Shown here: piece by piece, positions 3 to 23,221 of the stretch
Position numbering within the stretch: position 1 is the stretch's first letter
Layout of the letters: every line of letters begins with the position of its first letter
Source of the DNA: Pirellula staleyi DSM 6068
Lineage (GTDB): Bacteria; Planctomycetota; Planctomycetia; Pirellulales; Pirellulaceae
Assembly: GCA_000025185.1 (NCBI GenBank)
Contig: CP001848.1
Coordinates: forward strand, 2,310,001-2,342,000
Direction: 5' to 3'
DNA length: 32,000 nucleotides
Translations under genes and position numbers: made by a program
The notes under the pieces: generated by a model
Told to the model about the DNA's origin: nothing
The model's input: only the letters and a program-made list of their open reading frames with translations
The model's database searches: none

Positions 3-1172
3 GAAAAGCTCGAAGACATTTTAAAGAGGATCGACGAACTGGGAGGGCGTAATTCGTATGGACATTACGCAGCCGGATGGGCCGTAGCTGGCGACACCCC
101 ATTTACCTGGACCAAGCAAGTGGCATCAAGCTTTGGTGGCACTCGCAATGGGATGATTGTTCATTGGCCGAAAGGGATTAAATCGAAGAATGAGGTGCGC
201 AGCCAGTTCCACCATGTCATCGATATCGCCCCTACCGTGCTCGAAGCCTGCGGTTTGCCCGAACCACAAGAGGTTAATGGTTTCAAGCAGCGTCCCATCG
301 AAGGGGTGAGCATGGCCTATTCGTTCGAAGACGCGCAGGCAAAGGAACGGCACACAACACAGTACTTCGAAATCTTCTGCAATCGGGCAATCTACCACGA
401 CGGGTGGGTGGCCGGGACCGTGCATAAGGCCCCCTGGGAGCCTAAGCCTCGCGTCGATTCCTTCGATGACGACCGATGGGAACTTTACAACGTGGCCGAG
501 GACTTTAGCCAGTCAACGGACTTGGCGCAGAAGTACCCGGAGAAGTTGAAGGATCTCCAAGCTCTCTTCCTTAAAGAGGCGGAGGAGTTCCAAGTGCTAC
601 CACTGGACGATCGCCTGTTCGAGCGGTTCATCGCCTCGTTGGTGGGCCGTCCCGACCTTATGGAAGGTCGCACCTCGATGACCCTTCACGAGGGGATGAC
701 TGGCATGATGGATAACGTGTTCATCAACGTGAAAAACCGGTCGCACACAATCACCGCTGAGTTAGAAATTCCCCAGGGTGGGACCGAGGGGGTGATCATC
801 TGCCAAGGGGGCCGGTTCGGTGGGTGGAGCCTCTACACCAAAAGCGGAAAGTTGAACTACACATACAATTGGGTTGGCCTAGAACAGTACCAAATCACCA
901 CGGACAAGCCGCTACCCACCGGCAAGGTGATGGTCAGGTTCGAGTTCGTTTACGATGGTGGTGGGCTCGGCAAAGGGGGGAAGGGGACTCTGTTCGTAAA
1001 CGAAGAAAAAGTCGCCGAGAAACGGATCGAGCACACTGCGAGTGTCATTTTCTCACCCGACGAGACAGCGGACGTCGGTGTGGACGAGGCCACCAACGTG
1101 ACCAACGACTATCAGGAGCGGGACAACAAGTTCACCGGCAAGATCGAAAAAGTGATTGTTCGTCTTCAGTAG
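3..1172 (+). CDS. Sulfatase-family (arylsulfatase-like) protein, C-terminal part; the 5' end lies outside the window
   Basis: Frame 3 is open from the first bases of the window (EKLEDILKRIDELGGRNSYGHYAAGWAVAGDTPFTWTKQVASSFGGTRNGMIVHWP...) and runs into the 120..1172 ORF. The segments GGTRNG-VHWP, HHVIDIAPTVLEACGLP and NRAIYHDGW resemble the C-terminal half of type I sulfatases. Confidence 0.8.
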   Translation, partial: EKLEDILKRIDELGGRNSYGHYAAGWAVAGDTPFTWTKQVASSFGGTRNGMIVHWPKGIKSKNEVRSQFHHVIDIAPTVLEACGLPEPQEVNGFKQRPIEGVSMAYSFEDAQAKERHTTQYFEIFCNRAIYHDGWVAGTVHKAPWEPKPRVDSFDDDRWELYNVAEDFSQSTDLAQKYPEKLKDLQALFLKEAEEFQVLPLDDRLFERFIASLVGRPDLMEGRTSMTLHEGMTGMMDNVFINVKNRSHTITAELEIPQGGTEGVIICQGGRFGGWSLYTKSGKLNYTYNWVGLEQYQITTDKPLPTGKVMVRFEFVYDGGGLGKGGKGTLFVNEEKVAEKRIEHTASVIFSPDETADVGVDEATNVTNDYQERDNKFTGKIEKVIVRLQ

Positions 1173-1267: not shown

Positions 1268-2548
1268 CTAGATGTCCGACCAGGAATCGGGCGCCAATGT
1301 CTCGCAGCATGCGCCGCGGCCAAACCGCCAGGTTAACCCCAGGCCGATCCAATAGCTTTCGATGGACGAAGTAGTGAAATTGCCGAGTTGCTCCGTGTCG
1401 CGGAACATCCCGCCAGCCATCATATCCATGTCAATGCCGGGCAGCACATCGGTTACTCCAATACCAAAAGAGATGCGGTGTTGGCTGGTAATGGCTAGTA
1501 GGCCCTGTGTGTATCGTACGGCGGCCAAATCGCCGGGCTGTACGACGCCGCCGATATTGGCTCCCGGCGTATTGTCAATGGGATTCTCTGCCCAAGTGTA
1601 GCCGGTGCGAAATCGGTAGCGACCGTGCGTGAACTGTGCTCCGAGTTGCACAATCAATTGGTTGTCGTAGACAGCCTGATACATGTCGGCTTGATCCCAC
1701 AGCTTGTAAACAACATCCACCCCGAGCAGCAGACGTCCATCTATCATCGAGTTATTGGCCACACCAATCCCAATGTTCTGCGGAAGATCCATTTCCACGT
1801 CCGCGGAAGTTTGCCCCACGCCCGGATTTAGCAAAAAGGCGTTGTCGAATTCATAGGACTGAGCCGTCTGGTAATAGCCACCGATTGTCGTGCTATCCGT
1901 GAGCAAATAATTCATTCCAAGAGTCCCTCGCAAAGCGTAGTCGGAGGTCATTCCGCCAACGCCGACGAATGGGCCGTCAAAAAATGCAATCCCCAGCGAC
2001 AGACTCGCCCCAATCGCGAGTCGATCCGATAGGTCGACGCCTAGCGCGACGGGCATATTGAAAATCGTCTGACCCGTGTTGGTGCCGTGGCTTTCTGGAA
2101 CATGGCGGAAGTCGGCAAAACCGCCAGCCGTCGTGATGAAGCCAATGCCGAACGTGGCAGGCAGCCCCAGTTCACTTATGTCCTGAGTCAGGCCAATGTT
2201 TCCCAGAGGAGTTCCTGGGGCGGTTGACTTAGCGGAAAATGGCTCGATTAACGGCGTACCGATGCTTGGAATATTGCTGGTCTGCGTCAGGTTGAACGTG
2301 GGTTCGGCCCAGCCGCCACCAAAGATGAACTGAGTCCCGTGGAACTGCGTCAGTGCAGCAGGATTTGCATTAAGAGCACTGGTCAAGTCTTGCGGTCTCG
2401 CGATACTGACGCCACCCATGCCACCCGAGGCTGGCATTAAAGTGTTATGCAGTTCCACGCCAAACGACTGACCATAGGCGGCTGTGCCCCCGCCAAATAT
2501 GCACATCGCACATGTAAAGAACCAAAGCCCGAAACGTCTCATGGTCAT
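1268..2548 (-). CDS. Outer-membrane beta-barrel protein, FadL/TodX (OMPP1)-like
   Basis: I prefer the internal start MTMRRFGLWFFTCAMCIFGGGTAAYGQ, which gives a signal peptide. The N-terminal motif GGMGGVSIARPQDLTSALNANPAAL resembles the FadL family. The sequence shows alternating Gly/aromatic beta-strand patterns throughout, with a barrel-closing LTWRF near the C-terminus. It is convergent with the sulfatase gene. Confidence 0.6.
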   Translation of the reverse strand: MTMRRFGLWFFTCAMCIFGGGTAAYGQSFGVELHNTLMPASGGMGGVSIARPQDLTSALNANPAALTQFHGTQFIFGGGWAEPTFNLTQTSNIPSIGTPLIEPFSAKSTAPGTPLGNIGLTQDISELGLPATFGIGFITTAGGFADFRHVPESHGTNTGQTIFNMPVALGVDLSDRLAIGASLSLGIAFFDGPFVGVGGMTSDYALRGTLGMNYLLTDSTTIGGYYQTAQSYEFDNAFLLNPGVGQTSADVEMDLPQNIGIGVANNSMIDGRLLLGVDVVYKLWDQADMYQAVYDNQLIVQLGAQFTHGRYRFRTGYTWAENPIDNTPGANIGGVVQPGDLAAVRYTQGLLAITSQHRISFGIGVTDVLPGIDMDMMAGGMFRDTEQLGNFTTSSIESYWIGLGLTWRFGRGACCETLAPDSWSDI

Positions 2549-2859
2549 GGACCTTGTTGCATTGCGTTGCCGAACCGCTTGGGGCTTGTCGCATAAGCCC
2601 AAGGTTCGGAGTCAACAGCGATCGGCTAAGAGGTTCCTGGCTGTGTGGATCTGAAGACCCACACAGCTGGTCCCACTGAATTGCGTGTGCCATGAGCTTA
2701 AATCGGCATAAATCTATTTTTCCTCTTGTAGCGATTGTGCAGGCCGCAAAGTCTATCCAGGCTTCCAGGCTTACCGCTGGTCCATGCACGATGGATTGCA
2801 ACCAGTGGGGGCGTCGCGAGCCTTCTAAGACAGGGGCACGCGAGTATCGGTACTACTGA

Positions 2860-3414
2860 TGCGCTCGCTACAACTCCGCAGGACATCCTCGCGTTCGTCT
2901 GGTGGAATCGAAACTAGATCGGCAAATGCTCGATCTGTTTCAGACGATGCGAATTGAAGATGAGGGAGTTCGCCGCTGGGTGGTCGAAGTGCTTCGTGCC
3001 AAGTCCACAACTGCGGAGCAAGATGCGACGGCTGAGCGCGATGAGCTGCAGCGAGAACTCGACGCTGTTCGGAAGCAGAAAGATCGTCTGCTAAGCCTGC
3101 GTCTCCTCGATGAGATTGAGTCGGAGACTTTTGCAGCGAAGCAGTCGAAGAAAACGAAGCTGCAAACGCGACTCGAAGGAACTGCTCGTCAGCAGTCGGA
3201 AAGAGGCGATTGGGCGGTGAAAGTGTTTGAACTTTCGCAAGCTCTTGGGGCTAAATGGCTTGCGGCCGATATCGCAGAAAAGCGACTGCTTCTAGAAATC
3301 GTCTGTTTGAACTTGAAGCTCGTCGACGTAACTCTAGTCCCAGAAATGAGAAAGCCCTTCGACATGCTCGCCGAAGGGCTTCTTATCTCATCAAGTCGGG
3401 GTGACTGGATTTGA
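2860..3414 (+). pseudogene. Remnant of a large serine recombinase (C-terminal coiled-coil part only; catalytic N-terminus missing)
   Basis: The frame opens just after a TGA at 2857 and has only a GTG start. The translation (DELQRELDAVRKQKDRLLSLRLLDEIESETFAAK ... EKRLLLEIVCLNLKLVDVTLVPEMRKPFDML) resembles the coiled-coil C-terminal region of large serine recombinases. No resolvase catalytic domain lies upstream. The last 19 nt overlap the 3' end of the tRNA-Pro. Confidence 0.5.
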
Positions 3415-3470
3415 ACCAGCAACCTTCTGCACCCCATGCAGACGCGCTATCCAGGTTACGCTACACCCCG
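3396..3470 (-). tRNA. tRNA-Pro (anticodon GGG)
   Basis: The reverse complement reads CGGGGTG-TA-GCGT-AACCTGGATA-GCGC-G-TCTGC-ATGGGGT-GCAGA-AGGTT-GCTGG-TTCAAAT-CCAGT-CACCCCG-A. This gives a 7-bp acceptor stem, a D arm, a 5-bp anticodon stem with a 7-nt loop carrying GGG, a canonical T arm and a discriminator A. CCA is not encoded. Length is 75 nt. Confidence 0.9.
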
Positions 3471-3771: not shown

Positions 3772-5448
3772 TTAGGAGAATAGTCGTACCAGGAAGACGA
3801 CAAACACCGTAACCAGAATGACCACCGAAGCGAGTCCGCAAAGGATGCCGACAAACTGATAGAGGTCGTTGATTTGGACCGACAGCCGCGTCCATTCCAC
3901 TTCCTCTTGTTCCTCGGTCAGTTTTTCAAAGACCCCGCGCACAAACGCCTGCTGATCTTCGGTGTCGCCGGTGGCGGCGAAGTAACAGCCACTGAAAGCG
4001 ATCGGTTCGGCTGGATTCTTTTGGTTTGATTCGTAGCCAAAGCCCCCGGAGAGAACTTCGCGGAGAACGCCAGCAAGGTTCGAGCGCATCTGGCAGAGCA
4101 GACCGTAGAGTCGCGTATTGCCGGGGCGCGAGAGGGCTTCTGCTTCGCGGAAGAGGGTGTGAATCCAGTCTTCAAAGACCCCGGTGATTTGTCCACAAAG
4201 ATTTGTCACCTGTTCGGCGGTGGCGATCATGCGGACATCGAAGCGGCGACCAAAACGCTGGGTGGCAGCTCGTTCGCGTCCCACGCGGCGAACCAGTTCG
4301 CGAAAGCCACGCTGATTTTGCATGCCGGTGATGAGAGCGGTGACAGGGCAGCGGACCGTGAGTTCGTTTTGAATGATCGTGAGATCGGCGCGCACGGCAC
4401 GCTGCATCTCTTGCGTTTCGCGCTGGGTCGCCTGGAATACGTCGAATGGGAGCAGTGTGAGGACACCATTGAGCGGGCACAAGGGCCGACGTCCGCGACG
4501 CAGGAGTTGGCAAACGTATTCGAGCCGCTGCTGTTGTCGCGACGACTCTTGCGGCGAGAGCAGGGCAGGCTGATCGCTGACCGACGACGAAACGGAGGGG
4601 ACAAAATCGTCTTTGTCGTCGACCTCTTGGCTGCTCGATTGGGCTGAAGCTTCAGCAGCGGCAGCGAGCGATTGTTTTTCCATGACGAACTGATCGAGCA
4701 TGATCGTGCCACGATTGCGTTCGGCCCGTTTGGCGGGTGCGGGTGTCGAGGCCGTGGTGTTGATTGGCGCAACCGGTGCCGGAACTATGTTTTGCGGCAT
4801 CGAGAGGTCGGTGGGTGGCGCGCCCGAAGCGATGAGTTCGTTGCGACGTTTTTCGACGAGCGCCGCAAGCGAACTGGCCCAGCTTGCCTGGGTGCAAAAC
4901 AGATAGATTCCGTCGGGACCGGCATACCAGTGCAGCGGCGCAGGACCATCGGGAAGTTCTCGCATCCGCAGCGCTACGCCCGAGGCTCGCATGAGCGAAC
5001 GTTCCTGATTAATTCCGGGAGTGCCGACAATCAGAAACAAGGGCGCGCTGCTGAGAGAAAGACCGCTCCGCGAAAGTTGCTCGAGCCCCGTTTGCCAGGC
5101 GTAGTCGATATCGGGAAAAGGAGATTTGTCCCCTTCCATCCAGAGTCGAATGGCGTAGTAAAGCACGATTGGAATCGTGATGACGAGCATCACTTCGAGC
5201 GTCACCCGGAGCCACGACATCGAATGTCGCCACGGGACATTGTTGCTATCGACGAGAAAAACGATCCAAACCGTGATCAGCAGAATGGTGAGGACGAGAC
5301 TGGTGAGGCAACTAGCGCAGCCGGCTGTCGTAATCTTGCTGGGCCACGCCATCAGCCGCGCAAAGAACCCGGGCTGAGCGGGCGCTTTCGCCTTCTTCTC
5401 GGGCTTCTTTTCGGGTTTGGTTTCTTCAGCGGGTGCTTCGTCGCTCAT
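3772..5448 (-). CDS. tssM: TssM/IcmF-like T6SS membrane protein, short form (TM1-TM2, cytoplasmic domain, TM3, then stop)
   Basis: Two N-terminal TM helices are present (CLTSLVLTILLITVWIVFLV and VMLVITIPIVLYYAIRLW). PLFLIVGTPGINQERS sits at the position of the IcmF P-loop but lacks GK[ST]. HWYAGPDGIYLFCTQAS matches the DWWFT..AVLIDTAGRY region. RRPLCPLNGVLTLLPF matches the ImcF-related N-domain motif, and GCYFAATG matches YFTSG. A final TM helix (ILCGLASVVILVTVFVVFLV) comes 5 residues before the stop. Confidence 0.8.
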   Translation of the reverse strand: MSDEAPAEETKPEKKPEKKAKAPAQPGFFARLMAWPSKITTAGCASCLTSLVLTILLITVWIVFLVDSNNVPWRHSMSWLRVTLEVMLVITIPIVLYYAIRLWMEGDKSPFPDIDYAWQTGLEQLSRSGLSLSSAPLFLIVGTPGINQERSLMRASGVALRMRELPDGPAPLHWYAGPDGIYLFCTQASWASSLAALVEKRRNELIASGAPPTDLSMPQNIVPAPVAPINTTASTPAPAKRAERNRGTIMLDQFVMEKQSLAAAAEASAQSSSQEVDDKDDFVPSVSSSVSDQPALLSPQESSRQQQRLEYVCQLLRRGRRPLCPLNGVLTLLPFDVFQATQRETQEMQRAVRADLTIIQNELTVRCPVTALITGMQNQRGFRELVRRVGRERAATQRFGRRFDVRMIATAEQVTNLCGQITGVFEDWIHTLFREAEALSRPGNTRLYGLLCQMRSNLAGVLREVLSGGFGYESNQKNPAEPIAFSGCYFAATGDTEDQQAFVRGVFEKLTEEQEEVEWTRLSVQINDLYQFVGILCGLASVVILVTVFVVFLVRLFS

Positions 5449-5566: not shown

Positions 5567-6199
5567 TTATCCGTAAAACAGATACACGGCTGAAGTGGCT
5601 GCAATGAGGATCATGGTGAGTCCCGACCACAGCAAGATCATGCGACCGCGCTGGGGTGGAGCACCGCTGATCTCGCGACGCTTCCCATTCATGTTGGGGC
5701 GACCTTGGCCAAGTCGCACCGACATCGAGGCCTGCTTGGCCCAACTTTCGATGTCGGGAGGGAGTCCCAGATTCTGGATCGAGTAGATCGCTAGTTCGGG
5801 ATCGCGATAGACGCCGCGAAAGCCGAGGACGACACAAACGTAGTAAACTTCCAGCGCATCACGCGACGTGAGTGACGATGCCTCTTTCGCCCGCTCGTAG
5901 AACTGTTCGTAGCAGGTACGAGTGCTGAAGAGTTCGACTTCGAGCACGTTGTTGCTCCACCAATCGCGCCCCTCCCACGGAGCATCGACCAGCATTTCGT
6001 CGGCCCACGAGCAAATGGCATACTTGGCGAGCTGCCAGTCGGGCGAACTGCCGAGAATCGCTTCGGCCTGATCGATGAGTGTGCGAATGCGCAGTCGCTC
6101 ATCTTGCGGGGAGAGTTTTTCCTCGCGCGCAATCCGATCGAGCACCGACAAGATGTGGAGCATGATCGGGTCGACGGCATGGGCAAACTTGGGCGTCAT
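5567..6199 (-). CDS. tssL: TssL (DotU-family) T6SS membrane protein
   Basis: Cytoplasmic DotU-like domain: the segment YAICSWADEMLVD ... ALEVYYVCVVLGFRGVYRD matches the LGF.G.Y signature. A single C-terminal TM anchor follows (MILLWSGLTMILIAATSAVYLFYG). There is no OmpA/peptidoglycan-binding extension. The gene lies between tssK and tssM. Confidence 0.85.
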   Translation of the reverse strand: MTPKFAHAVDPIMLHILSVLDRIAREEKLSPQDERLRIRTLIDQAEAILGSSPDWQLAKYAICSWADEMLVDAPWEGRDWWSNNVLEVELFSTRTCYEQFYERAKEASSLTSRDALEVYYVCVVLGFRGVYRDPELAIYSIQNLGLPPDIESWAKQASMSVRLGQGRPNMNGKRREISGAPPQRGRMILLWSGLTMILIAATSAVYLFYG

Positions 6200-6311: not shown

Positions 6312-7784
6312 TCACTGTCTGTTGGGAACAGCGAATAGTGCGAACTGCAGCGGCACTTGTTTGCCACGATGCGAGATCACCATTTGGCGTTGGCCCTGCA
6401 GCCGATCGAGGTTCACGATCAGCGAATCCTTCAGACGCATTGCCAGCGTTTGGGTTGCTTGCACATCGCGCCAGGCGGGGGATTCGTTCTTGCTCACCTC
6501 GTAGTAAACCCACTCTTGCTGCACGGGCAGAGCACGAATCGCTCGATCCATCGGATTGAGCCGCACCCCTTCCGCACGCTGTTTGAACAGGATTTCCACC
6601 TGCCGACTGCTACCGAGTTTCCAGTCGAGTTGGCCGGGCGAAAGCAGGTCGCGGATTTCCTGGGTCGTGAGGTCACCCTTGTTCACTCCGACATACCACT
6701 GCCAATCGCTGTTGAACCACTTGGATTCGAGCGAAACTTGCATCCCCAGACCGACACCTTCGAAGTATCGCTGTTCGTACTCGTAGTCGCGCACCATGTT
6801 CAGCAGCGTTTCGATGCGCAGCTTCACGTCGCGGAAAATCTCGCACAGATTGTCGTGATCGTACGGAAGTACGGGATCGGTGCGTCGTTCGGGGGCAAAG
6901 ATCGAGAGTTGACCAACGATGCGGCAAAGCTCGGTGTAGGCCGCGATAGGATGCACCCCTTGCGCGAAGCCGAGAATTGCCAGTGCGTTGTAGGCCGCGT
7001 TGATTTCCGACAGCATCAGCAGACGATCGAGATCGCCCGGATGGCGGCTTTCGAGGCCGACACCGCGGCTGGTGATCTGGCCTGCTAGCACTTCGATTTT
7101 TTGGCCGATGACGTCGTAGATCGAGCGGACAATATCGCGTGCTAAATACTGCCAGGCATCGATCGCCACGACAGGCGGAATATAGCTGTCGTCGAGCTGG
7201 GGTCGCGCGTTGCTGGCGCTCGCACGCTTCACTTGCGCAATTGGCAAGCATTCGTAGCCGGTGCGATCTTGTGTCGAGAGCAGCAGTTTGACGTTGAGAT
7301 TGCGCAGCTCGATTTCTTGCTCGTTGCCACCCATCGCTTCGTCTTGCGAGAGCATGCGCTGCGAGATGTAGCGTGGTGGTGGTTCGGTGTCGGTGGTGTT
7401 GGCGACATTCGCGCGTCCCATTTTCAGTTTGGGAACGGCGAGATAGACCCGCACGACAGGCCGAGCATCGAAAGCTTCTTCGAGGCTCGCGAGCGCTTGA
7501 TTCATCGCTAGCACATCATCGCGCAGATTGAGGCGATCAGGTTCCTCGCCAAACTCTAGCGACACCAGTGTGCCATCTTGCATGCGGGCTTTGAGCACAC
7601 GCACTTCGAATTGATTGTTGGCGAGTGCTTCGCGACTGATATCGAGAGCGACAAGACCATAGTTGTAAGGATGATCCCACTGCTCGCCGGTGGCAGCATG
7701 TTCCGAGGCAGCGCGATCGGCTGCTTGGAAGTGGTGGGGCCTTAGGAAGAGACCTTCGTACCAATGGACCGGTAGATTCCGCAT
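6312..7784 (-). CDS. tssK: TssK T6SS baseplate protein
   Basis: The N-terminus PVHWYEGLFLRPHHFQAADR matches the conserved V.W.EG..L.PQHFQQ.D opening of TssK. The length (490 aa) fits. A GAGG lies 7 nt upstream of the ATG. It is first in a tssK-tssL-tssM series. Confidence 0.9.
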   Translation of the reverse strand: MRNLPVHWYEGLFLRPHHFQAADRAASEHAATGEQWDHPYNYGLVALDISREALANNQFEVRVLKARMQDGTLVSLEFGEEPDRLNLRDDVLAMNQALASLEEAFDARPVVRVYLAVPKLKMGRANVANTTDTEPPPRYISQRMLSQDEAMGGNEQEIELRNLNVKLLLSTQDRTGYECLPIAQVKRASASNARPQLDDSYIPPVVAIDAWQYLARDIVRSIYDVIGQKIEVLAGQITSRGVGLESRHPGDLDRLLMLSEINAAYNALAILGFAQGVHPIAAYTELCRIVGQLSIFAPERRTDPVLPYDHDNLCEIFRDVKLRIETLLNMVRDYEYEQRYFEGVGLGMQVSLESKWFNSDWQWYVGVNKGDLTTQEIRDLLSPGQLDWKLGSSRQVEILFKQRAEGVRLNPMDRAIRALPVQQEWVYYEVSKNESPAWRDVQATQTLAMRLKDSLIVNLDRLQGQRQMVISHRGKQVPLQFALFAVPNRQ

Positions 7785-8008
7785 GGAGACCTCAGGCTGG
7801 GGAGTAAAGGCACGCCCAAGTTATCAGAAACAGAAAAAAGTGGTAGTTCGTTCGATAAAAGGTGTCGTTACAGCCGATACATCCGGAAAGGTTTGCCTAA
7901 ACTGCACGACCGGTATTGCTAGCGACGATCGAGCTGGCTGATAGCGGCGGTGGAAAGGCAACATGTTCTTCCAGATTAAAAGCTTCGGAACCTGCTGTGG
8001 CTGCACCC

Positions 8009-9922
8009 ATGCCAAAAGCGAGGACGGGAAGTTTGCGAGCGATCGCAAGCTTCGCGTTGCTGCTAGCGACAAGTTCGCTGGCGGCACAGGATCCGTATGC
8101 GCCGGTGGGTGTGCCAGCGGCATATCCTTCATCGGTCCCGGCACCAACGTTTGGCCTGCCGAATCTGCCAGCAGGTCAAATGCCAGCCCGCGTGCAGCCA
8201 GCACCGTATTCGCCGCCCCATGCTGGTAATTGGGTCGCGCCGCCAACTTACGCGAATCTTCCGCCTCAGCAACCACCTGGGGTGCCACAAAGCGGAACCA
8301 GCTTCGTGCCGCCGCTCCCGGCAGCACAGCCTCCAGTGCCCCCCGGCTATGTTCCCCCACAGCCCCCTCGTAGCACGGTGGTCCAGGCCCCTTACTTCGG
8401 CCAGCAAGCCGCTCAGCCCGTTCTTTCAAGCACGTCGCAACCTGCTGTGCAGCAAACAGTGACCGCACAAGCGGCCCCTTCACAGCCTCCAGCATCTGGC
8501 TGGAAGTCGTGGGTTCCAAAACTCCCTTGGAACCCCTGGAACGACGTTGCTCCGAGCGATACACCGGTGGTGGCCCCACCATCAGCTTCCGACCCCCGCA
8601 GCAGTGCGGCGACAGCAATGCCGGTCCCTGGTCGTCCTGGAACCACCCTGGTTCGCATCCCCGATCCGGTCATTTCCCCCACCGGCGAAATCGTCATGCC
8701 GTCGAGTGTCGGCAGCAACTTCGGTGTGCAGCAAGCTGCTTACAGCGAAGATGTTACGTCAGCCGTCGGCACTGGCCCAGTGCGTAATGCCATCGAATGG
8801 GGAACTGTTCACCCCGCCGGATCGGTCCAGCAGGCGTCGGCCCTCCAGCCAGCCATGATGGGTGAGCCTCTCCCCACACCAGCTGGTATGCCCATGCCAG
8901 GGGGTGATTTCATGATGAACAACAGCTTCGGACAGGGGTACACCACCACCTATCAATCCCAACCCGGAGCACCAGATTCTGCTAGCCCCATATTCGGCGA
9001 TCTCTTGGGCGAGCAAGGCTTTACGGAAACCGCGAGCGATGCCTGGCTCGGAGATTGGTCGGACGGATACTACGGCGATCCGGTGCGTGAAGCGGGCATT
9101 GGACGCGAGCGCGTGCAGGCGGCTCCCTTCGAAATCGATATCGCTCAGCCGCAAGCCAGTTTTACGTTCCGCACCCAAGCTGGTTGGAACGTCGGGTTCC
9201 CCGACCGGTCGGAATACTTTTTCGCTAAACCGGGGCGCGGACCAGCGGCCGACACCGGTGCCGATTTCCAAGACTTCCGTTTTCAGCTCGAGGTGGGTGG
9301 TGGGTCGGCTTCGGTGATTACCGATATTCCGATCCGTGTCCTCGATCCGGAAATCAACCCCAACACAACCGGTATCGGCGACATGTCGACCACCGCCAAG
9401 GTGGTATTGATGCAGGGGGGAGACTGGATGATGACCCAGGTGACCAAAACCACGTTCAACAGTGGTAATGCTCGCAAGGGTTTAGGCACGGGGCACGTCT
9501 CGATCGAGCCCGGTATGCTGTTCCGCTATAACTCGAGCGACATCACCTACTGGCATGGCGAACTGAAGGTCAATTTCCCTATCGCGGGTGACCCAGCCCA
9601 CAGCGGACAAGTTCTGAAGTGGGGCATTGGTGTCAGCCATGTGATCTACGAAACCGATGCCTTTGCCATCATTCCGACGTTTGAGTACACCAACATGTGG
9701 TTCCTCGATGGTGGGCAAACGGTGATCGATCCGCCGCTTCCTAACACCATCATCGATGTCGATGGCGACGGTCTCTCGTACTTCACCGAAGGGGCCCGCC
9801 TCATTTTCGATACCGGTGGAGATCTCGGTTTGATGGAGGTCGGCATCTGTGCTCAGCAGCAGATCGGTTCGCTGGGCTATCTCGATGCGATGCTGAAGTT
9901 CGACCTGCGATTCATCTACTAG
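8009..9922 (+). CDS. Secreted protein: signal peptide, Pro/Gln-rich linker and a C-terminal beta-barrel-like outer-membrane domain
   Basis: I prefer the internal ATG at 8009, giving MPKARTGSLRAIASFALLLATSSLAAQ (Sec signal with an A-A-Q cleavage-like site). About 190 aa of low-complexity Pro-rich sequence follow. The last ~270 aa alternate hydrophobic and polar residues, are Gly/aromatic rich (GLGTGHVSIEPGMLFRY, KWGIGVSHVIYE) and end in an aromatic residue (KFDLRFIY), as in OM barrels. The gene is divergent from tssK. Confidence 0.65.
   Translation: MPKARTGSLRAIASFALLLATSSLAAQDPYAPVGVPAAYPSSVPAPTFGLPNLPAGQMPARVQPAPYSPPHAGNWVAPPTYANLPPQQPPGVPQSGTSFVPPLPAAQPPVPPGYVPPQPPRSTVVQAPYFGQQAAQPVLSSTSQPAVQQTVTAQAAPSQPPASGWKSWVPKLPWNPWNDVAPSDTPVVAPPSASDPRSSAATAMPVPGRPGTTLVRIPDPVISPTGEIVMPSSVGSNFGVQQAAYSEDVTSAVGTGPVRNAIEWGTVHPAGSVQQASALQPAMMGEPLPTPAGMPMPGGDFMMNNSFGQGYTTTYQSQPGAPDSASPIFGDLLGEQGFTETASDAWLGDWSDGYYGDPVREAGIGRERVQAAPFEIDIAQPQASFTFRTQAGWNVGFPDRSEYFFAKPGRGPAADTGADFQDFRFQLEVGGGSASVITDIPIRVLDPEINPNTTGIGDMSTTAKVVLMQGGDWMMTQVTKTTFNSGNARKGLGTGHVSIEPGMLFRYNSSDITYWHGELKVNFPIAGDPAHSGQVLKWGIGVSHVIYETDAFAIIPTFEYTNMWFLDGGQTVIDPPLPNTIIDVDGDGLSYFTEGARLIFDTGGDLGLMEVGICAQQQIGSLGYLDAMLKFDLRFIY
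8087..8668 (+). repeat. Low-complexity Pro/Gln/Ala/Val-rich coding tract (linker) inside the 8009..9922 CDS
   Basis: The translation is dominated by short P-rich motifs (PPQQPPGVPQ, PPLPAAQPPVPPGYVPPQPP, APSQPPASG, VVAPPSASDP) with no exact tandem unit. Confidence 0.6.
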
Positions 9923-10611: not shown

Positions 10612-11706
10612 ATGATTAGCAACCTAGATATCGATAAACTCCTCGCGCCAATCTCCGAAGATTCGCCGTGTGGAGAGAACCTTGAGTACGACGCCGACTA
10701 TGCCGAAATGGCAAAGGCAGCCGAAGGAAAAGGGGACCAGCAGTTCGGAAAAACGGTGATTGCCGCCGAAGAACCTGACTGGAAAACCGTTCGTTCCCTC
10801 GCCGTTTCGCTCCTCGGTCGATCAAAAGATCTCCGAATTGCCGACTTCCTGACGCGAGCCTCGATTCGTCTCGATGGCCTCCCAGGACTTCACGGCGGAC
10901 TCTCCGTTATTCACGGTCTCTGCGAGCGATTCTGGCCGACCGTTCACCCGCAACTCGATCCCGACGACGACAACGATCCCACGATCCGCGTCAACACGAT
11001 CGCCACGCTGTGCGATCCCCTCACCACCCTCAAAGCTGTCCGCGAAATGCCGTTTGTGAAGAGCAAACTGGGCATGTTCAGCTACCGCGACCTGCTGGTG
11101 GCTCGTGGCGAAATGCCCCCGCCAGCGTCGGGCAACAAAACAGAAATGTCGTCGCTCGATGCCGCTTTTGCCGAGTGCGACCCGAATCTTTTGCTATCGC
11201 TGGCCGAGAGTGCCAAAGAGTGTTTGCGGCTGTCGATGGGCATCGAAGCTGTCGTGACCGATCAGGTGGGGACGTCGAACGCTCCCAACCTCGAAGACCT
11301 CACCGACATGCTGCGGGGCATCAACAAGCACCTGCAAGATCGTGTCCAGCAGCGCGGGCTCAATAAGCAACCCGAGCCAGAACCGGTGGAAGAGGATGCC
11401 CCGGCGGAGTCGTCCAGCGGATCAACGGCTACAGCTTCAACATCGGCCTCTCAACCTATGCGAATCACTGGCGAAATCAGCAGCCGCGAAGATGTCATTC
11501 GAACGATCGACAAGATCTGCGAATACTACCGCCGCTACGAACCATCGAGCCCTGTCCCGTTGTTTCTGAATCGTGCCAAGCGTTTGGCGTCGAAGAGCTT
11601 TCTCGACATCTTGCGAGATCTCACTCCCGATGCCTTGTCGCAAGCTCTTTCGCTCGGAGGTATCTCCGATGCGAGCGAGTTGCAGGCCGATGACGACGAT
11701 ATGTAA
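10612..11706 (+). CDS. tssA: TssA (ImpA-family) T6SS protein
   Basis: ImpA N-domain opening LLAPISEDSPCGENLEYDADYAEM ... DWKTVRSLAVSLLGRSKDLRIADFLTRA. An acidic/Ser-rich linker follows, then the C-terminal YEPSSPVPLFLNRAKRLASKSFLDILRDLTPD typical of TssA. Confidence 0.85.
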   Translation: MISNLDIDKLLAPISEDSPCGENLEYDADYAEMAKAAEGKGDQQFGKTVIAAEEPDWKTVRSLAVSLLGRSKDLRIADFLTRASIRLDGLPGLHGGLSVIHGLCERFWPTVHPQLDPDDDNDPTIRVNTIATLCDPLTTLKAVREMPFVKSKLGMFSYRDLLVARGEMPPPASGNKTEMSSLDAAFAECDPNLLLSLAESAKECLRLSMGIEAVVTDQVGTSNAPNLEDLTDMLRGINKHLQDRVQQRGLNKQPEPEPVEEDAPAESSSGSTATASTSASQPMRITGEISSREDVIRTIDKICEYYRRYEPSSPVPLFLNRAKRLASKSFLDILRDLTPDALSQALSLGGISDASELQADDDDM

Positions 11707-12100: not shown

Positions 12101-12613
12101 TTGGCCAAAACCAGCAGCCAGAAGTTCATTGCACGAAACCGTGCCCCTCGCGTGCAGATCGAATACGATGTGGAAGTTTACGGAGCTGAGAAAAAAGTTC
12201 AGCTTCCGTTTGTGATGGGCGTGATGGCCGACTTGTCGGGTAAGCCTGCTGAACCTCTGGCCGCAGTGGCTGATCGCAAGTTCCTCGAGATCGACGTCGA
12301 CAACTTCGACGAACGCCTCAAGAGCATGAAGCCCCGCGTGGCATTCAACGTCCCCAACACCCTCACCGGTGAAGGCAATGTGGCCGTTGATATCACCTTC
12401 GAGAGCATGGACGACTTCTCACCCGCTGCGGTGGCACGCAAGGTGGAAGCGCTCAACAAGCTGCTCGAAACCCGCACGCAGCTGGCCAACCTGCTGACGT
12501 ACATGGACGGCAAGAGTGGCGCCGAAGACCTCATCGGCAAGGTCCTCAAAGATCCTTCGCTGTTGCAAGCTCTGGCCTCGGCTCCCAAGCCGGAAGCCCC
12601 CGCTGCTGAATAA
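12101..12613 (+). CDS. tssB: TssB (VipA) small sheath subunit
   Basis: RAPRVQIEYDVEVYGAEKKVQLPFVMGVMADLSG and ITFESMDDFSPAAVARKVEALNKLLE are hallmark TssB segments. The start is TTG, with AAAGGAG 8 nt upstream. Confidence 0.92.
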   Translation: MAKTSSQKFIARNRAPRVQIEYDVEVYGAEKKVQLPFVMGVMADLSGKPAEPLAAVADRKFLEIDVDNFDERLKSMKPRVAFNVPNTLTGEGNVAVDITFESMDDFSPAAVARKVEALNKLLETRTQLANLLTYMDGKSGAEDLIGKVLKDPSLLQALASAPKPEAPAAE

Positions 12614-12700
12614 TTCCCTGCAAGGCGTTGGTGGCTCGCGTCGAGCCCCCGCTGTTGCTCCACAATTCAAAGCCTTCCACTTCCGGTCGGAGTATTCAAG

Positions 12701-14200
12701 ATGTCGATGGATCCCAGTTTGCAGTCAGCCCAGCAAGGTGCCGAAACCACCTTCGCTTCGAGCGATTTTTCGTCGCTCCTCCAAAAAGAATTCAAACCCA
12801 AGAGCGATCGTGCTAAGGAAGCCGTTGAGTCGGCTGTAAAGACCTTGGCTCAGCAAGCTCTCGAAGGGACCGCTGTTGTTTCCGACGACGCGATCAAGAC
12901 GATCCAGGCCATCATCGCCTCGATCGATCAGAAGCTCTCGGAACAGGTCAACCTGATTCTGCACAACCCTGATTTTCAGCAGCTCGAAGGTGCCTGGCGT
13001 GGTTTGCACTACCTCGTCAACAACACCGAAACCGACGAAATGCTGAAGATCCGCGTCTTCAACATCTCGAAGAAAGAACTCGGCAAGACGCTCAAGAAGT
13101 TCAAGGGAACGGCTTGGGATCAGAGCCCGATCTTCAAGAAGATGTATGAAGAAGAATACGGCCAATTCGGTGGCGAGCCCTACGGCTGCCTCGTGGGTGA
13201 TTATCACTTCGATCACAGCCCACCCGATGTCGAATTGCTCGGCGAAATCTCGAAGGTTTGCGCCGCTGCTCACGCTCCGTTCATCGCCGGTGCTTCCCCC
13301 ACGCTCATGCAAATGGATTCGTGGCAGGAACTCTCGAACCCTCGCGATCTGACCAAGATCTTCGGCACCGCCGAATACGCTCCTTGGCGTTCGCTCCGCG
13401 AATCGGACGATTCACGCTACATCGGCCTAGCGATGCCACGCTTCCTCTCGCGATTGCCTTACGGCGCGAAGACCGACCCAGTCTCGGAATTCGACTTCGA
13501 AGAGGATGTCGAGAACGCTGATCACAGCAAGTACACCTGGTCGAACGCTGCTTACGCGATGGCCACGAACATCAACCGTTCGTTCAAGCTCTACGGCTGG
13601 TGCTCGCGTATTCGCGGTATCGAATCGGGCGGTGCCGTGGAAGGCTTGCCTTGCCATACGTTCCCCACCGACGACGGTGGCGTGGACATGAAGTGCCCCA
13701 CCGAAATCGCGATCAGCGACCGCCGCGAAGCGGAACTCGCCAAAAACGGTTTCATGCCACTCGTGCACAAGAAGAACTCGGACTTCGCCGCGTTCATTGG
13801 TGCTCAGTCGCTCCAGAAGCCACAGGAATACGACGATCCCGATGCCACGGCCAACGCCAACCTGTCGGCCCGTCTCCCTTACTTGTTTGCCACTTGCCGC
13901 TTCGCTCACTATCTCAAGTGCATCGTTCGCGACAAACTGGGTTCATTCAAAGAAAAGGAAGACATGCAGGGTTGGCTCAACCGCTGGGTGTCGAACTACA
14001 TCGAATACAACCCGAAGCTCGCTTCGGAAGAAGACAAAGCTCGCCGCCCACTCGCTGCAGCTGAAGTGACCGTCGAAGAAGTGGAAGGTAACCCAGGTTA
14101 CTACTCTTCGAAGATGTTCCTCCGCCCCCACTACCAGCTGGAAGGTTTGACCGTGTCGCTGCGACTCGTGTCGAAACTCCCATCGGGCAAGGGTGGTTAG
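12701..14200 (+). CDS. tssC: TssC (VipB) large sheath subunit
   Basis: 499 aa with WRGLHYLV, HAPFIAGASP, YAPWRSLRESDDSRYIGLAMPRFLSRLPYG and FAHYLKCIVRDKLGSF, which are typical TssC blocks. It lies directly downstream of tssB. Confidence 0.93.
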   Translation: MSMDPSLQSAQQGAETTFASSDFSSLLQKEFKPKSDRAKEAVESAVKTLAQQALEGTAVVSDDAIKTIQAIIASIDQKLSEQVNLILHNPDFQQLEGAWRGLHYLVNNTETDEMLKIRVFNISKKELGKTLKKFKGTAWDQSPIFKKMYEEEYGQFGGEPYGCLVGDYHFDHSPPDVELLGEISKVCAAAHAPFIAGASPTLMQMDSWQELSNPRDLTKIFGTAEYAPWRSLRESDDSRYIGLAMPRFLSRLPYGAKTDPVSEFDFEEDVENADHSKYTWSNAAYAMATNINRSFKLYGWCSRIRGIESGGAVEGLPCHTFPTDDGGVDMKCPTEIAISDRREAELAKNGFMPLVHKKNSDFAAFIGAQSLQKPQEYDDPDATANANLSARLPYLFATCRFAHYLKCIVRDKLGSFKEKEDMQGWLNRWVSNYIEYNPKLASEEDKARRPLAAAEVTVEEVEGNPGYYSSKMFLRPHYQLEGLTVSLRLVSKLPSGKGG

Positions 14201-14353: not shown

Positions 14354-14880
14354 CGAATGGGGCCTGCCAGGGATGTGCTCATCACCTGTTAGGCCAAGGA
14401 TTAGGATGCTTGTCCACGGAGCGGCACTCCCAGCGGATGGGGTTTCACCGGAGGAGAGGCGAACCAGATTTCCTGAAAGATTTGGTTCTGGAAGGTGAGT
14501 AGGGCGGGGCATGTGTGAAACACAGCCTGTGGCAAATTGCCAACGGCTGATGGGCTTTTGCAGCAACCTCGAGCACTGCTCGCCAGTGGTTTTCGAACGA
14601 TGGGGTTAATTTTCCCCAAGAAAACGATTCCCCAGGTAGTAATCTCCCTCACGACTTGGCAGAATTTTCGAAAATCGTTCCAAGGAATCAAAAAAGTCGG
14701 CGAATACGTTGCGTCTGATCTGGCCACAAGCGGAGAAGAGGCAGCAAATTCCAAGACGGATTTAGATCAGAAATCAAACTGCAGCGGTGCTGGTGATCGT
14801 GCTCACACGGCCCGCTGCCATCGTAGTAATTCGTGGGCAAAACAGTTTTCTGTCTCGCATTGAACTAAAGGAACGTTCGC

Positions 14881-15381
14881 ATGATTCTGCTCAAACTTGA
14901 TGGTGTTACCGGCGACTCGCAGATCCCAGGTTACGAAGACTGGATTGCCTGCACCAGCTGCAGCTGGAACATTGAACGTACGTTTTCGGAATCGGCCAAG
15001 GCTGGTACCCTCGACGTGAACGTCGGTGTTGCTGAAATCCCACCAATTACCCTCGGCAAGTCGTTTGACGTGGCGAGCGTCTACCTGATGCAAAACGCCA
15101 TCGCTGGCGGTGCTCTGGGAACCGCTGCTCAGATCCACTTCCTCAGCACTTCGGGTACCGAAGGCACTGGCGCTATCTACCTCGAATACAAACTGTTCAA
15201 TCCGATTGTGGCCAGCTGGAGCATCAGCGGCGACGAAGATGAACGTCCGACGGAAGAAGTGACCCTGTGGTACTGGAAGATTTGGATGCAGTACTACGCC
15301 TCGACCGACGGTAAGAACTACGTCGGTAAGGGTAACAAGGGTTGGGATCGTACCAAGAACAAGTCGTGGGACGGCAAGTAA
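14881..15381 (+). CDS. hcp: Hcp (TssD) tube protein
   Basis: 166 aa. MILLKLDGVTGDSQIPGYEDWIACTSCSWNI matches the Hcp opening (F/LKIDGI.GES......WIE..SFSW.). AAAGGA lies upstream of the ATG. It sits in the tssC/tagJ neighbourhood. Confidence 0.88.
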   Translation: MILLKLDGVTGDSQIPGYEDWIACTSCSWNIERTFSESAKAGTLDVNVGVAEIPPITLGKSFDVASVYLMQNAIAGGALGTAAQIHFLSTSGTEGTGAIYLEYKLFNPIVASWSISGDEDERPTEEVTLWYWKIWMQYYASTDGKNYVGKGNKGWDRTKNKSWDGK

Positions 15382-15410
15382 TTTGCCCCTCCCCGATAGG
15401 CAGCGGGTTC

Positions 15411-15436
15411 TCTCGGGAAGCCCACGTTTCCCGAGA
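15411..15436 (+). other. Stem-loop 30 nt after the hcp stop (9-11 bp)
   Basis: TCTCGGGAA (15411-15419) pairs with TTCCCGAGA (15428-15436). There is no U-tract afterwards. Confidence 0.5.
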
Positions 15437-15487
15437 TCTCTGCTGCCAATCAGTGTCAGATTTCGGCTGACTGGACGAGTGGCTATC

Positions 15488-15515
15488 GCAGCGTGAGCGT
15501 TTTTTGCTCCGCTGC
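15488..15515 (+). other. Stem-loop in the hcp-tagJ spacer (10 bp, one bulge, U-rich loop)
   Basis: GCAGCG(t)GAGC - GTTTTTT - GCTCCGCTGC. Confidence 0.45.
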
Positions 15516-15561
15516 TGGATGACAGCTCGACGCCGAATCTAGCGACCTTCGCTCGAGAATA

Positions 15562-15596
15562 TCGCCTGCCAGTTCCAACTCGGAGTTGGCAGGCGA
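15562..15596 (+). other. Long stem-loop or palindrome in the hcp-tagJ spacer (15 bp including 2 G-U, 5-nt loop)
   Basis: TCGCCTGCCAGTTCC - AACTC - GGAGTTGGCAGGCGA. No U-tract follows, so it is not a classical terminator. Confidence 0.55.
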
Positions 15597-15716
15597 CAAC
15601 TCTCCTGGATCCTTCAGCGTGCTGCACGAAGCGCACGTCAGTCGAGCCTCTGCGATACTTCCATCGCTGGCTTGTCATCAACATGATTATTACGCTGATT
15701 TACTTCGCGAGAGAAA

Positions 15717-16658
15717 GTGAGCCCTTCGGTGGACGCCCTCAGTACCCTTCGCGATGGCAATCTCGACACCGCTCTAGCCGAATTGAGCCAGAAAATCCGC
15801 AGCAATCCGGGTGATCCCAAGCTGCGAGTTTTTCTCTTTCAGTTGCTTTGCGTTCAAGGCCAATGGGATCGCGCTCTCACGCAACTCGGCGTCTCGGGCG
15901 ATATGGACCCGATCGCGATGCCGATGGTGCAGACCTATCGGGAAGCGATTCGCTGCGAACTTTTGCGAAGCGACATTTTCACCGGCAAACGCACACCGCT
16001 GATCTTCGGCGAACCGGAGGAATGGATCGCGCTGCTGATGCAGTCGCTCGAGCAAACGGCGAAGGGTCACATCGCTGAGGGGGAAACGCTCCGCCAACAA
16101 GCGTTCGAGCTCGCTCCCGTCACTTCCGGCGTGATCAAAACGGCGAATCGAGTTCCCGAAGGGGAGAGCGAGTCGTTCACCGAAACCCCGTTTGAATGGC
16201 TCTCGGACGCCGATTCGCGTCTCGGTCCGATCATCGAAGCGATCGTGAACGGCCGCTATTACTGGATTCCTCTGCATCGCATTCGCCGCATCGATGTCGA
16301 GAAACCCGAGGATTTGCGCGACTACGTTTGGACGCCGGTCCATTTCCAGTGGGCCAATGGTGGTGAAGTGGTGGGGCTCGTCCCCACACGCTATCCGCTG
16401 ACCTTCAACAGCACCGATCCACTGCTGAAGCTCTCGCGCAAGACTGAGTGGAACGAAATTGCCGAAGGGGTTTACCACGGCCTCGGGCAACGAATGCTCA
16501 CCACCGATGCCGGCGACTATGCTCTGATGGATGTGCGACAAATTCGCCTCGATGTGGCTCTCGATGCGTCGATGAAGAGCCCTGAAGAAGCGGTCGCCCT
16601 CGACGTTTCGCCAGAACTACGGGCCGGTAGCGTCGACGGAGAGTCCACGGATGGCTGA
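15717..16658 (+). CDS. tagJ: TagJ / ImpE (SciE)-family T6SS accessory protein
   Basis: N-terminal TPR-like LRDGNLDTALAELSQKIRSNPGDPKLRVFLFQLLCVQGQWDRALTQL and C-terminal GRYYWIPLHRIRRIDVEKPEDLRDYVWTPV match the ImpE family. The GTG start is uncertain. The stop overlaps the tssE start (ATGGCTGA). Confidence 0.8.
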   Translation: MSPSVDALSTLRDGNLDTALAELSQKIRSNPGDPKLRVFLFQLLCVQGQWDRALTQLGVSGDMDPIAMPMVQTYREAIRCELLRSDIFTGKRTPLIFGEPEEWIALLMQSLEQTAKGHIAEGETLRQQAFELAPVTSGVIKTANRVPEGESESFTETPFEWLSDADSRLGPIIEAIVNGRYYWIPLHRIRRIDVEKPEDLRDYVWTPVHFQWANGGEVVGLVPTRYPLTFNSTDPLLKLSRKTEWNEIAEGVYHGLGQRMLTTDAGDYALMDVRQIRLDVALDASMKSPEEAVALDVSPELRAGSVDGESTDG

Positions 16659-17154
16659 GTTAACCACGCAAGAGCGTTTGCAGCCGTCGCTCCTCGATCG
16701 GCTTACTGATGAAGAGCCGCAGCAAGGACAGGAATCTCGCAATCGGCGCGTGTTGTCGCTGCAACGTTTGCGCGAAAGTGTGCTTCGCGATCTTGCCTGG
16801 CTCCTGAACACCACGAATCTCGGTGACCGAACCCTGGAGTACGAAGCCCCGTTTGTTGAATCGTCGGTGCTGAACTATGGGGTGCCCGATTTCGCGGGGC
16901 TCACCAGCAGCAGCGTCGACGGGGGCCAGTTGCAGCGACTGGTGAAGCAAGCGATCTGGAATTTCGAGCCCCGCATTCTGCGCGAGACACTCGAAGTGAA
17001 CATCAGCGCCGATGGTGGCCGGATGGACCAAAACAGTTTGATTTTTGAGATTTCGGGAGAGCTCTGGGCCCAGCCGGTGCCGCTCGAATTGTTCCTCAAG
17101 ACCCAAGTAGACCTCGAAACTGGAAGTATCTCGATTGCCGACTTTGTCCGTTGA
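16651..17154 (+). CDS. tssE: TssE (gp25-like) baseplate protein
   Basis: LQPSLLDRLTDEEP ... SVLRDLAWLLNT ... SVLNYGVPDFAGL are typical of the TssE/GPW-gp25 family. 167 aa. An 8-nt overlap with tagJ suggests translational coupling. Confidence 0.88.
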   Translation: MAELTTQERLQPSLLDRLTDEEPQQGQESRNRRVLSLQRLRESVLRDLAWLLNTTNLGDRTLEYEAPFVESSVLNYGVPDFAGLTSSSVDGGQLQRLVKQAIWNFEPRILRETLEVNISADGGRMDQNSLIFEISGELWAQPVPLELFLKTQVDLETGSISIADFVR

Positions 17155-17219
17155 TTAGCAGGGGCAGCCCCTCGTTTTCATCGCCGCGCAGTCAGGTTGG
17201 AAGGAACGCTCCCTCAGTC

Positions 17220-23035: not shown

Positions 23036-23221
23036 TCTTGCGAAATCCCAGTCGATCGCGGTGGAAAGGCTTTCTTTCCACCGCCTCGGCTGAAATTCCA
23101 AGATTCCAGCGCCACCAACGAACTAGAATCGCGCGAAGGCATTCCCTTTCGCGCGATTTTGCATAGCTACTTCCTACTCTATCGCTCCACACGACCTTGC
23201 AACCAGCTGAGAGGCTCCTTT

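Follow-up and report, generated by a model that had tools for sequence, protein, structure and literature searches.

In canonical type VI secretion systems of subtype i (T6SS-i), TssJ, TssL and TssM, and notably the periplasmic domain of TssM, form the trans-envelope conduit, which is the first step of assembly. The baseplate is recruited by the membrane complex, in which TssL and the cytoplasmic loop of TssM are the binding sites of TssK and TssG. We analyzed a T6SS cluster found in a 32,000-nucleotide stretch of Pirellula staleyi DSM 6068 (contig CP001848.1, positions 2,310,001 to 2,342,000 of the forward strand; this whole stretch is called the window below, and coordinates are counted from its first letter). 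The TssM of this cluster, Psta_1824, ends just after its third transmembrane (TM) helix and has no periplasmic domain. It is referred to here as the short TssM.

Several described systems come close to this arrangement. PdpB of the Francisella T6SS-ii belongs to the IcmF family and lacks a functional Walker A motif; its periplasmic domain is large, and its partner is the lipoprotein IglE. The P. staleyi protein resembles it in having a dead Walker A in a divergent T6SS, but the periplasmic domain is missing, and no lipoprotein of the TssJ type was found in the window or in the related loci searched. In the T6SS-iii of Bacteroidota and the T6SS-iv of Amoebophilus, TssJ, TssL and TssM are all lost, and T6SS-iii uses TssN-R. 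These are contractile machines without a TssJ-TssM channel, as proposed here for P. staleyi; P. staleyi, however, keeps TssL and the cytoplasmic half of TssM, and the rest of its genes are those of a typical T6SS-i, TssB being as much as 85% identical to its proteobacterial counterparts. Finally, TssJ-less T6SS-i (the imp type of Agrobacterium/Rhizobium, and Acinetobacter) share with the P. staleyi locus the lack of TssJ in the cluster and the same divergent two-operon layout, but their TssM is full-length and their TssL bears an OmpA-like domain for peptidoglycan binding. None of these known variants is a T6SS-i in which TssL is kept but TssM is reduced to its cytoplasmic half.

Architecture of the short TssM

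The open reading frame (ORF) at 3772-5448 (minus strand, ATG start) is 100% identical to Psta_1824 and encodes 558 amino acids (aa). Hydropathy places three TM segments in it, arranged as in TssM/IcmF proteins, with two helices forming a hairpin at the N-terminus and the third placed behind the cytoplasmic domain: TM1 at aa ~43-66 (5251-5322), TM2 at aa ~80-103 (5140-5211) and TM3 at aa ~531-554 (3787-3858), all read on the minus strand like the other features of the gene. In an AlphaFold model computed with 83 homologues as input (predicted local distance difference test, pLDDT, of 85.7), the corresponding helices span residues 41-66, 79-105 and 521-557. By hydropathy, only four residues (RLFS) lie between TM3 and the stop codon. 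The cytoplasmic part contains the remnant of a Walker A motif (aa 142-151, 4996-5025), a low-complexity insert (aa ~208-298, 4555-4827) and the IcmF-related_N domain (aa 304-496, 3961-4539). The insert is predicted to be disordered (pLDDT 45-57 in these blocks); its length varies, and it is the main source of the size spread among homologues (530-700 aa).

Two canonical proteins served as comparators: the TssM (1199 aa) encoded on plasmid pTT6-1 of Skermanella sp. TT6 and, from plasmid pACIX901 of Granulicella tundricola, an ImcF protein of 1128 aa. With canonical T6SS-i TssM (TIGR03348/COG3523) the short TssM has in common the TM1-TM2 hairpin, the cytoplasmic domain with a homologous IcmF-related_N region, and TM3. 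Gene order is also alike: tssM comes after tssK and tssL, and the group tssK-L-M is divergent from tssA-B-C-hcp-E-F-G, as in Skermanella. The differences concern the C-terminal half, where TM3 of the Skermanella protein (residues 452-478) is followed by 720 periplasmic aa and this ~700-aa domain is missing from Psta_1824, as well as the insert of ~90 aa, which is peculiar to the short form, and the nucleotide-binding motifs considered below.

The only Pfam match of the protein is PF14331 (IcmF-related_N; E = 8e-15, 55.2 bits against a cut-off of 25), and the Pfam scan found neither of the periplasmic domains PF06761 and PF06744 in Psta_1824. With TIGR03348, the model of full-length TssM, the score is 17.5 bits (cut-off 388), and the match covers only positions 189-364 of the 1168 in the model. 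In profile-profile alignments with hhalign, aa 313-492 were matched to residues 207-385 of Skermanella TssM, and aa 311-394 were aligned with a profile of three canonical TssM sequences (probability 93% in the first run, 93-95% over both). The first alignment pairs RRPLCPLNGVLTLLPF with RRQPLNGLLVAIAV, and GCYFAATG with GAYFVSGT, of Skermanella TssM. A previous examination of this DNA, made from the letters and their translations (the sequence-only reading below), had described the protein as a TssM reduced to its cytoplasmic module, with recognisable IcmF motifs and a stop just after TM3. The hydropathy profile, the solitary PF14331 match and the partial TIGR03348 match bear this out, and both of the motifs that it had singled out align to canonical TssM. 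The IcmF-related_N region is the sole part of the short TssM with detectable homology to canonical TssM. Sequence searches of the PDB, with the single protein and with the 83-sequence profile, returned merely chance matches to TM segments. At NCBI such proteins are labelled "IcmF/TssM N-terminal domain-containing protein".

Apart from the membrane helices, the only sizeable part of the short TssM that is exposed to the periplasm is the 13-residue loop between TM1 and TM2 (aa 67-79, 5212-5250, DSNNVPWRHSMSW). Few stretches of the family are as well conserved as this loop: its consensus DPxNVPWRHxMSW is kept in the 83-sequence alignment, and in a set of 25 diverse homologues R74 is invariant, while D67, W73 and H75 are conserved in at least 90%. 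One would not expect this of a short loop that connects two helices, and it suggests a contact site in the periplasm.

A Walker A motif (GxxxxGK[ST]) is found in many, though not all, functional TssM proteins. At the corresponding position the short TssM reads GTPGINQERS, in which GK[ST] is replaced by N-Q-E; the sequence-only reading had pointed to this stretch (4996-5025) as a degenerate P-loop, and two lines of evidence support the placement. In the AlphaFold model, GTPGINQERS sits in a strand (137-141)-loop-helix (146-156) succession. When the N-terminal cytoplasmic halves of the two proteins are aligned locally, the top-scoring alignment sets APLFLIVGTPGINQERS against IPWYVIIGPPGSGKTTA, which contains the Walker A of Skermanella TssM (z = 3.75; the score was reached in 2 of 500 shuffles); there the canonical GPPGSGKT has GTPGINQE as its counterpart, and the canonical Walker-B-like DTAG matches CTQA by position. 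The family consensus at the site is GSxGxRQExA, with G142 invariant and E149 conserved in at least 90% of the 25 diverse homologues, and both GK[ST] and DxxG are missing from all 24 homologues that were read through. The equivalence of the N-terminal alpha/beta half with the canonical nucleoside triphosphatase (NTPase) domain is thus supported but not strongly proven, on the basis of a weak local alignment and predicted secondary structure. Two results tell against it: the profile-profile alignments to canonical TssMs never reached the P-loop half, and a Foldseek search of the PDB with the model of the short TssM gave nothing at E < 0.1. In this last search, matches to the NFeoB G domain recurred at E values of 0.2-1.3, a mere hint of a GTPase-like fold.

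Conservation in the Planctomycetota

The distribution of the short form was examined by two database searches. A word-index search returned 670 homologues, the best 120 of which are 394-701 aa long and carry PF14331 alone. An exhaustive hidden Markov model (HMM) search over 1.84 billion representatives, clustered at 50% identity, gave 801 clusters at E <= 1e-30 and 1841 at E <= 1e-3. Among its best 150 matches the longest protein has 695 aa, and those matches that reach the C-terminal end of the profile lie within ~40 residues of the protein's own C-terminus. The 24 homologues that were read through (40-87% identity) all end 3-8 residues past TM3. In addition, a scan of one genome per species provided a sample of 78 loci, analyzed with 10 kb on either side. 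All 78 belong to Planctomycetota (Pirellulales, Planctomycetaceae and Lacipirellulaceae), with cultured members such as Aporhodopirellula aestuarii and "Planctomycetales bacterium 10988". An operon tssK-tssL-tssM with the short tssM as last gene is present in about 70 of the 78 loci; the association of tssM with tssL and tssK in a T6SS cluster therefore holds in the window and in most of its relatives.

These data bear on a simple explanation of the short form, namely that the periplasmic half of tssM was lost recently, for example through an event that left an integrase fragment and a tRNA gene behind, and that the locus is crippled. The left edge of the cluster gives this idea some substance. 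A tRNA-Pro(GGG) gene (3395-3470, minus strand, detected by ARAGORN) lies 301 bp from the end of tssM, in agreement with the ~300 bp previously noted between the tssM stop and the tRNA, and beyond it lies the C-terminal fragment of an integrase, a setting typical of recombination hot spots. Nevertheless, the same C-terminus at TM3 is found in the closest relatives and in all of the hundreds of homologues examined, down to 30% identity, many homologues have another downstream context without a tRNA, and dozens of invariant residues show that the family is obviously under purifying selection. The TssM proteins of the closest relatives (87% and 61% identity) are just as short, and no full-length tssM stands at this position in them. 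The region 3' of the short tssM is a tRNA in P. staleyi, a VgrG gene in one of the loci (L018) and a sigma-like gene in another clade; as this context varies, the end of the protein is not set by local rearrangement. A deletion, which the sequence-only reading had left as one of its two alternatives, is therefore extremely improbable, since the short form, the dead P-loop and the end at TM3 recur in every homologue examined. The integrase fragment and the tRNA-Pro mark a recombination-prone edge and did not truncate tssM. Psta_1824 is almost certainly an intact, conserved TssM form present throughout the planctomycete lineage, and not a broken gene.

The integrase fragment itself is a 170-aa ORF (2902-3414, plus strand) that overlaps or abuts the tRNA-Pro gene and matches the C-terminal third (419-547 of 651) of the integrase family phrog_95 (E = 1e-6). 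Apparently it was left behind by an element that had integrated there, at the left end of the cluster.

In the literature that we searched, there is no description of the short planctomycete TssM architecture or of its distribution; in Boyer et al. (2009), Rhodopirellula baltica is merely listed as T6SS-positive.

Divergence of the envelope-facing genes

The short tssM is the last gene of an operon that begins with tssK (6312-7784, minus strand; PF05936, E = 5e-70) and continues with tssL (DotU; 5567-6199, minus strand; PF09850, E = 4e-28). The 210-aa TssL has a single C-terminal TM segment (187-208) followed by two residues, and no periplasmic or peptidoglycan-binding domain. By comparison, Skermanella TssL has 434 aa, with a TM segment at 221-253 and a periplasmic C-terminal part of ~180 aa.

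The genes of the cluster differ widely in their similarity to those of proteobacterial clusters of the same gene order. Identity reaches 85% for TssB, 80% for TssC and 73% for ClpV, the comparator being plasmid pTs485 of the gammaproteobacterium Ca. Thiodictyon syntrophicum, whose T6SS gene order (tssABC-hcp-tagJ-EFG-H) matches that of the window; no tssJ, K, L or M was found within 20 kb of the Thiodictyon cluster. Intermediate values are observed for TssF (58%), TssE (53%), TagJ (53%), TssG (52%) and TssA (41%). The lowest are those of TssK (25-29%, best of 528 plasmid records), TssL (29%), TssM (33% over 69 residues) and Hcp (28%). The Hcp of the window is unusually divergent: it scores 23.6 bits with TIGR03344 against a cut-off of 58.9, and is 22-28% identical to the Hcps of otherwise very similar proteobacterial clusters. 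A tblastn search with the short TssM gave no match in 72,556 plasmids, of which 579 carry tssC. The contrast between a conserved sheath and ClpV on the one hand and TssK, TssL, TssM and Hcp at 33% identity or less on the other indicates that the envelope-facing module was remodelled as a whole. Along the window this appears as a mosaic, the segments 12101-14200 and 20288-23035 being conserved and the segment 3772-7784 divergent.

Search for the missing periplasmic and outer-membrane parts

We looked for the parts that a canonical membrane complex would require. A Pfam scan of all plausible ORFs of the window, including small intergenic ones, did not find TssJ (PF12790), IcmF periplasmic or OmpA domains, and when the periplasmic parts of TssM and TssL from Skermanella were used as tblastn queries, neither the window nor the 78 loci gave a match (E <= 1). 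When the ORFs of these loci were clustered all against all, only three non-core families recurred in the vicinity of the operon: (a) homologues of the protein of 668 aa encoded at 7916-9922, described in the next section; (b) in a second clade of loci (type B), a protein of 235-260 aa, sigma-70-like by eye only, together with a soluble protein of ~130 aa, both 3' of tssM; (c) giant proteins of 1450-1760 aa that have a TM helix at the N-terminus and match essentially nothing in Pfam.

The absence of these parts could also mean that the gene is split, i.e. that an anchored TssM periplasmic domain and TssJ are encoded elsewhere in the genome and that an essentially canonical TssJLM complex is built with a short TssM. 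The search for TssJ and for a free TssM periplasmic domain spans the window and the 78 loci, not the whole P. staleyi genome, which leaves room for this explanation and counts against our own. Moreover, VgrG and PAAR genes were not found in the 32-kb window either, so that T6SS genes are dispersed in this genome. On the other side, the 78 loci and the neighbourhoods of the three T6SS-linked barrel homologues described below contain no ORF for IcmF periplasmic domains or TssJ; the clustering gave no conserved extra family beyond the three cited, and tblastn with the canonical periplasmic domain was negative. The closest canonical layout, that of Skermanella, is itself without annotated tssJ within 20 kb. 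The loss of the periplasmic domain of TssL as well suggests a coordinated loss rather than a split. We consider a split gene improbable.

The genes that follow the short tssM in the second clade were considered as possible periplasmic parts and rejected, one being sigma-70-like by eye and the other a soluble protein of ~130 aa. In nine type B loci (L029, L030, L033, L039, L043, L045, L049, L051 and L060) the short tssM is followed by the ~130-aa and sigma-like genes and then by tssA-B-C, which suggests that the pair is a dedicated sigma/anti-sigma regulator of the type B cluster.

The giant TM family is located upstream of tssK in L019, L025, L029, L030, L031, L046, L052 and L078, and was also observed at L086 (9287-14125) and L087 (8487-13193). 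It adjoins tssK in the barrel-less type B clade, and also adjoins barrel genes; in one case it occurs without nearby T6SS genes. The window has no homologue of it. These proteins may be another envelope component of planctomycete T6SS.

A candidate outer-membrane barrel

The 668-aa ORF at 7916-9922 (plus strand) lies between tssK and tssA, divergent from tssK, and is our candidate for an outer-membrane component. Its likely start is MPKAR at nucleotide ~8006. A predicted signal peptide (MPKARTGSLRAIASFALLLATSSLAA, followed by QD) precedes a Pro/Gln/Ala-rich linker of ~330 aa and a C-terminal domain that AlphaFold2 models as a short helix and a ~12-strand beta-barrel (nucleotides ~9101-9919; pLDDT 90). 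The sequence ends in ...FDLRFIY, with a C-terminal aromatic residue. The protein has no Pfam match of its own, and PF13557 is carried by distant homologues only. Foldseek relates the barrel to FapF (5o68; E = 4e-9, TM-score 0.62) and to a COG4313 channel (4rl8; E = 4e-6). The likeness to FapF (5o65/5o68) and to the COG4313/MetA-like protein (4rl8) covers the ~12-strand barrel after a short helix and the long periplasmic N-terminal extension. There are differences too: sequence identity is ~10%, the gene is linked to T6SS and not to fap genes, and the extension is of Pro/Gln-rich low complexity in P. staleyi versus a coiled coil in FapF.

With an HMM of the barrel family, a homologue was detected in 24 of the 42 loci that include at least 2.5 kb upstream of tssK. 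When these are placed on a distance tree of the short TssM, the barrel is present in 24 of the 28 informative loci outside the type B clade and in none of the 14 inside it, so that its presence tracks phylogeny. Sampling in the other direction, from the barrel, three of five close homologues (34-43% identity) adjoin tssK-L-M(short) or tssA-B-C. The barrel is strongly, though not exclusively, linked to the short tssM. Its linkage and its fold are the grounds on which it is tentatively proposed as the outer-membrane partner in the P. staleyi clade. As its other alternative, the sequence-only reading had suggested that different proteins make up the envelope-spanning part: this fits the data, and the barrel is now a putative protein of this kind.

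In the plasmid-borne T6SS of the acidobacterium Granulicella tundricola, whose TssM of 1128 aa is full-length, an 816-aa hypothetical protein (L083, 12934-15384) is encoded divergent from tssK, in the same position as the barrel gene.

Proposed mechanism

The explanation that best accounts for the data, and that we regard as probable, is that the short TssM is a normal component which forms an inner-membrane anchor with the short TssL, the barrel being a candidate portal. The short TssM is a three-TM inner-membrane protein keeping only the cytoplasmic module and ending in the membrane at TM3. This module comprises an alpha/beta domain with a dead nucleotide-binding loop, then the IcmF-related_N helical region. 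With the short TssL it would form an anchor confined to the inner membrane, where the baseplate made of TssK and TssEFG would dock. By analogy with canonical T6SS biology, a docking role of the short TssM at the inner membrane is likely. Nucleotide hydrolysis by TssM would play no part in the mechanism, because the Walker A Lys and the following Ser/Thr are Gln-Glu throughout the family. Judging from the absence of its parts, the channel made of the TssM periplasmic domain and TssJ would be missing. In the P. staleyi clade the FapF/COG4313-like barrel, with its Pro-rich tether of ~330 residues, may serve as outer-membrane portal or landmark; in the type B clade other proteins would take the portal role.

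The main competing view dispenses with any dedicated outer-membrane component: TssL and the short TssM would only anchor the baseplate to the inner membrane, the contracting sheath would force the Hcp-VgrG spike across peptidoglycan and outer membrane, and the barrel would be an unrelated porin-like protein. T6SS subtypes without TssJLM do exist (T6SS-iii and T6SS-iv). Several of our own observations also speak for such a view or against a portal role of the barrel. The second planctomycete clade (14 loci) has a short TssM and no barrel nearby, so the barrel cannot be a universal partner; two of the five close barrel homologues are without T6SS genes within 7 kb; and a paralogue of the barrel, 28% identical, adjoins ExbB. 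The short TssM and TssL, furthermore, expose almost nothing to the periplasm, the TM1-TM2 loop being the only obvious site for a tether. Arguments against a machine without portal are the position of the barrel gene, which stays between tssK and tssA in homologues down to 34% identity, the way in which barrel presence follows TssM phylogeny, and the long Pro-rich periplasmic extension, which is atypical of a simple porin. We consider this view rather unlikely.

The short TssM could also have left type VI secretion and taken on a new function, such as that of a membrane scaffold in a different process. Its very low similarity to canonical TssM and its dead P-loop would agree with this. However, in dozens of genomes its gene is strictly co-operonic with tssK and tssL and usually adjoins tssA-B-C-hcp, which makes repurposing very improbable. 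A canonical VgrG, 32-40% identical to Skermanella VgrG, is encoded in four related loci (L006, L018, L026 and L071), in L018 directly 3' of the short tssM; its presence indicates a bona fide T6SS.

Taken further, the inner-membrane anchor and its candidate portal might define a new T6SS subtype of planctomycetes, in which the TssJ-TssM channel was discarded in favour of an inner-membrane-only anchor and lineage-specific outer-membrane proteins (the barrel, and possibly the giant single-pass proteins of 1450-1760 aa in the second clade). We put this forward only as a tentative suggestion.

Other genes of the window

The core T6SS-i components TssA, B, C, Hcp, E, F, G, K and ClpV all match Pfam or TIGR models. 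Beyond the barrel gene, the rightward part of the cluster consists, all on the plus strand, of tssA (10612-11706), tssB (12101-12613), tssC (12701-14200), hcp (14881-15381, a weak match to TIGR03344), tagJ (15717-16658), tssE (16651-17154), tssF (17151-19097), tssG (19061-20098) and clpV (20288-23035); apart from hcp, they were assigned by Pfam. An ORF opposite hcp (14803-15684, minus strand, 293 aa) has no family match and was treated as a shadow ORF. GC content is flat over the window (53-60%), which gives no genomic-island signature.

Directly after clpV are found a Lys/Glu-rich protein of 380 aa without significant family match (23159-24301, plus strand) and, next to it, a DUF4240 protein (24523-25077, minus strand). 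Neither was seen in the related loci, which rarely extend past clpV. Two proteins of ~1090 aa follow (25215-28469 and 28598-31888, both minus strand); they have no Pfam or NCBIfam match and occur in none of the 78 related loci. One of them, 1084 aa as translated, is Ala/Lys/Glu-rich and has a mostly helical look. They could be strain-specific cargo, effectors, or unrelated genes.

On the left flank, beyond the tRNA, are the C-terminal part of a sulfatase-family protein (120-1172, plus strand) and a 444-aa protein (1268-2602, minus strand) with a weak match to the FadL/Toluene_X outer-membrane transporters (E = 2e-5, under the cut-off). Both genes are probably unrelated to the T6SS.

Conclusion

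The short TssM is a member of an extensive natural family (800 clusters or more at 50% identity) in which an otherwise textbook T6SS-i, with a sheath 80-85% identical to proteobacterial ones, has lost the periplasm-facing parts of TssM and TssL. As TIGR03348 scores far under its cut-off for these proteins, surveys that use equivalog-level models could score such systems as TssM-less. The family suggests that the cytoplasmic module of TssM has a role separable from the channel, presumably baseplate docking, and that passage through the outer membrane can be solved in another way. It would thus offer a natural experiment on what the periplasmic channel is needed for, and candidate replacement parts can now be named. 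The system should be of interest to T6SS specialists, its significance hinging on experiment. If the proposal of a new subtype is true, planctomycetes may owe this subtype to adaptation to their periplasm, which is unusually wide and dynamic.

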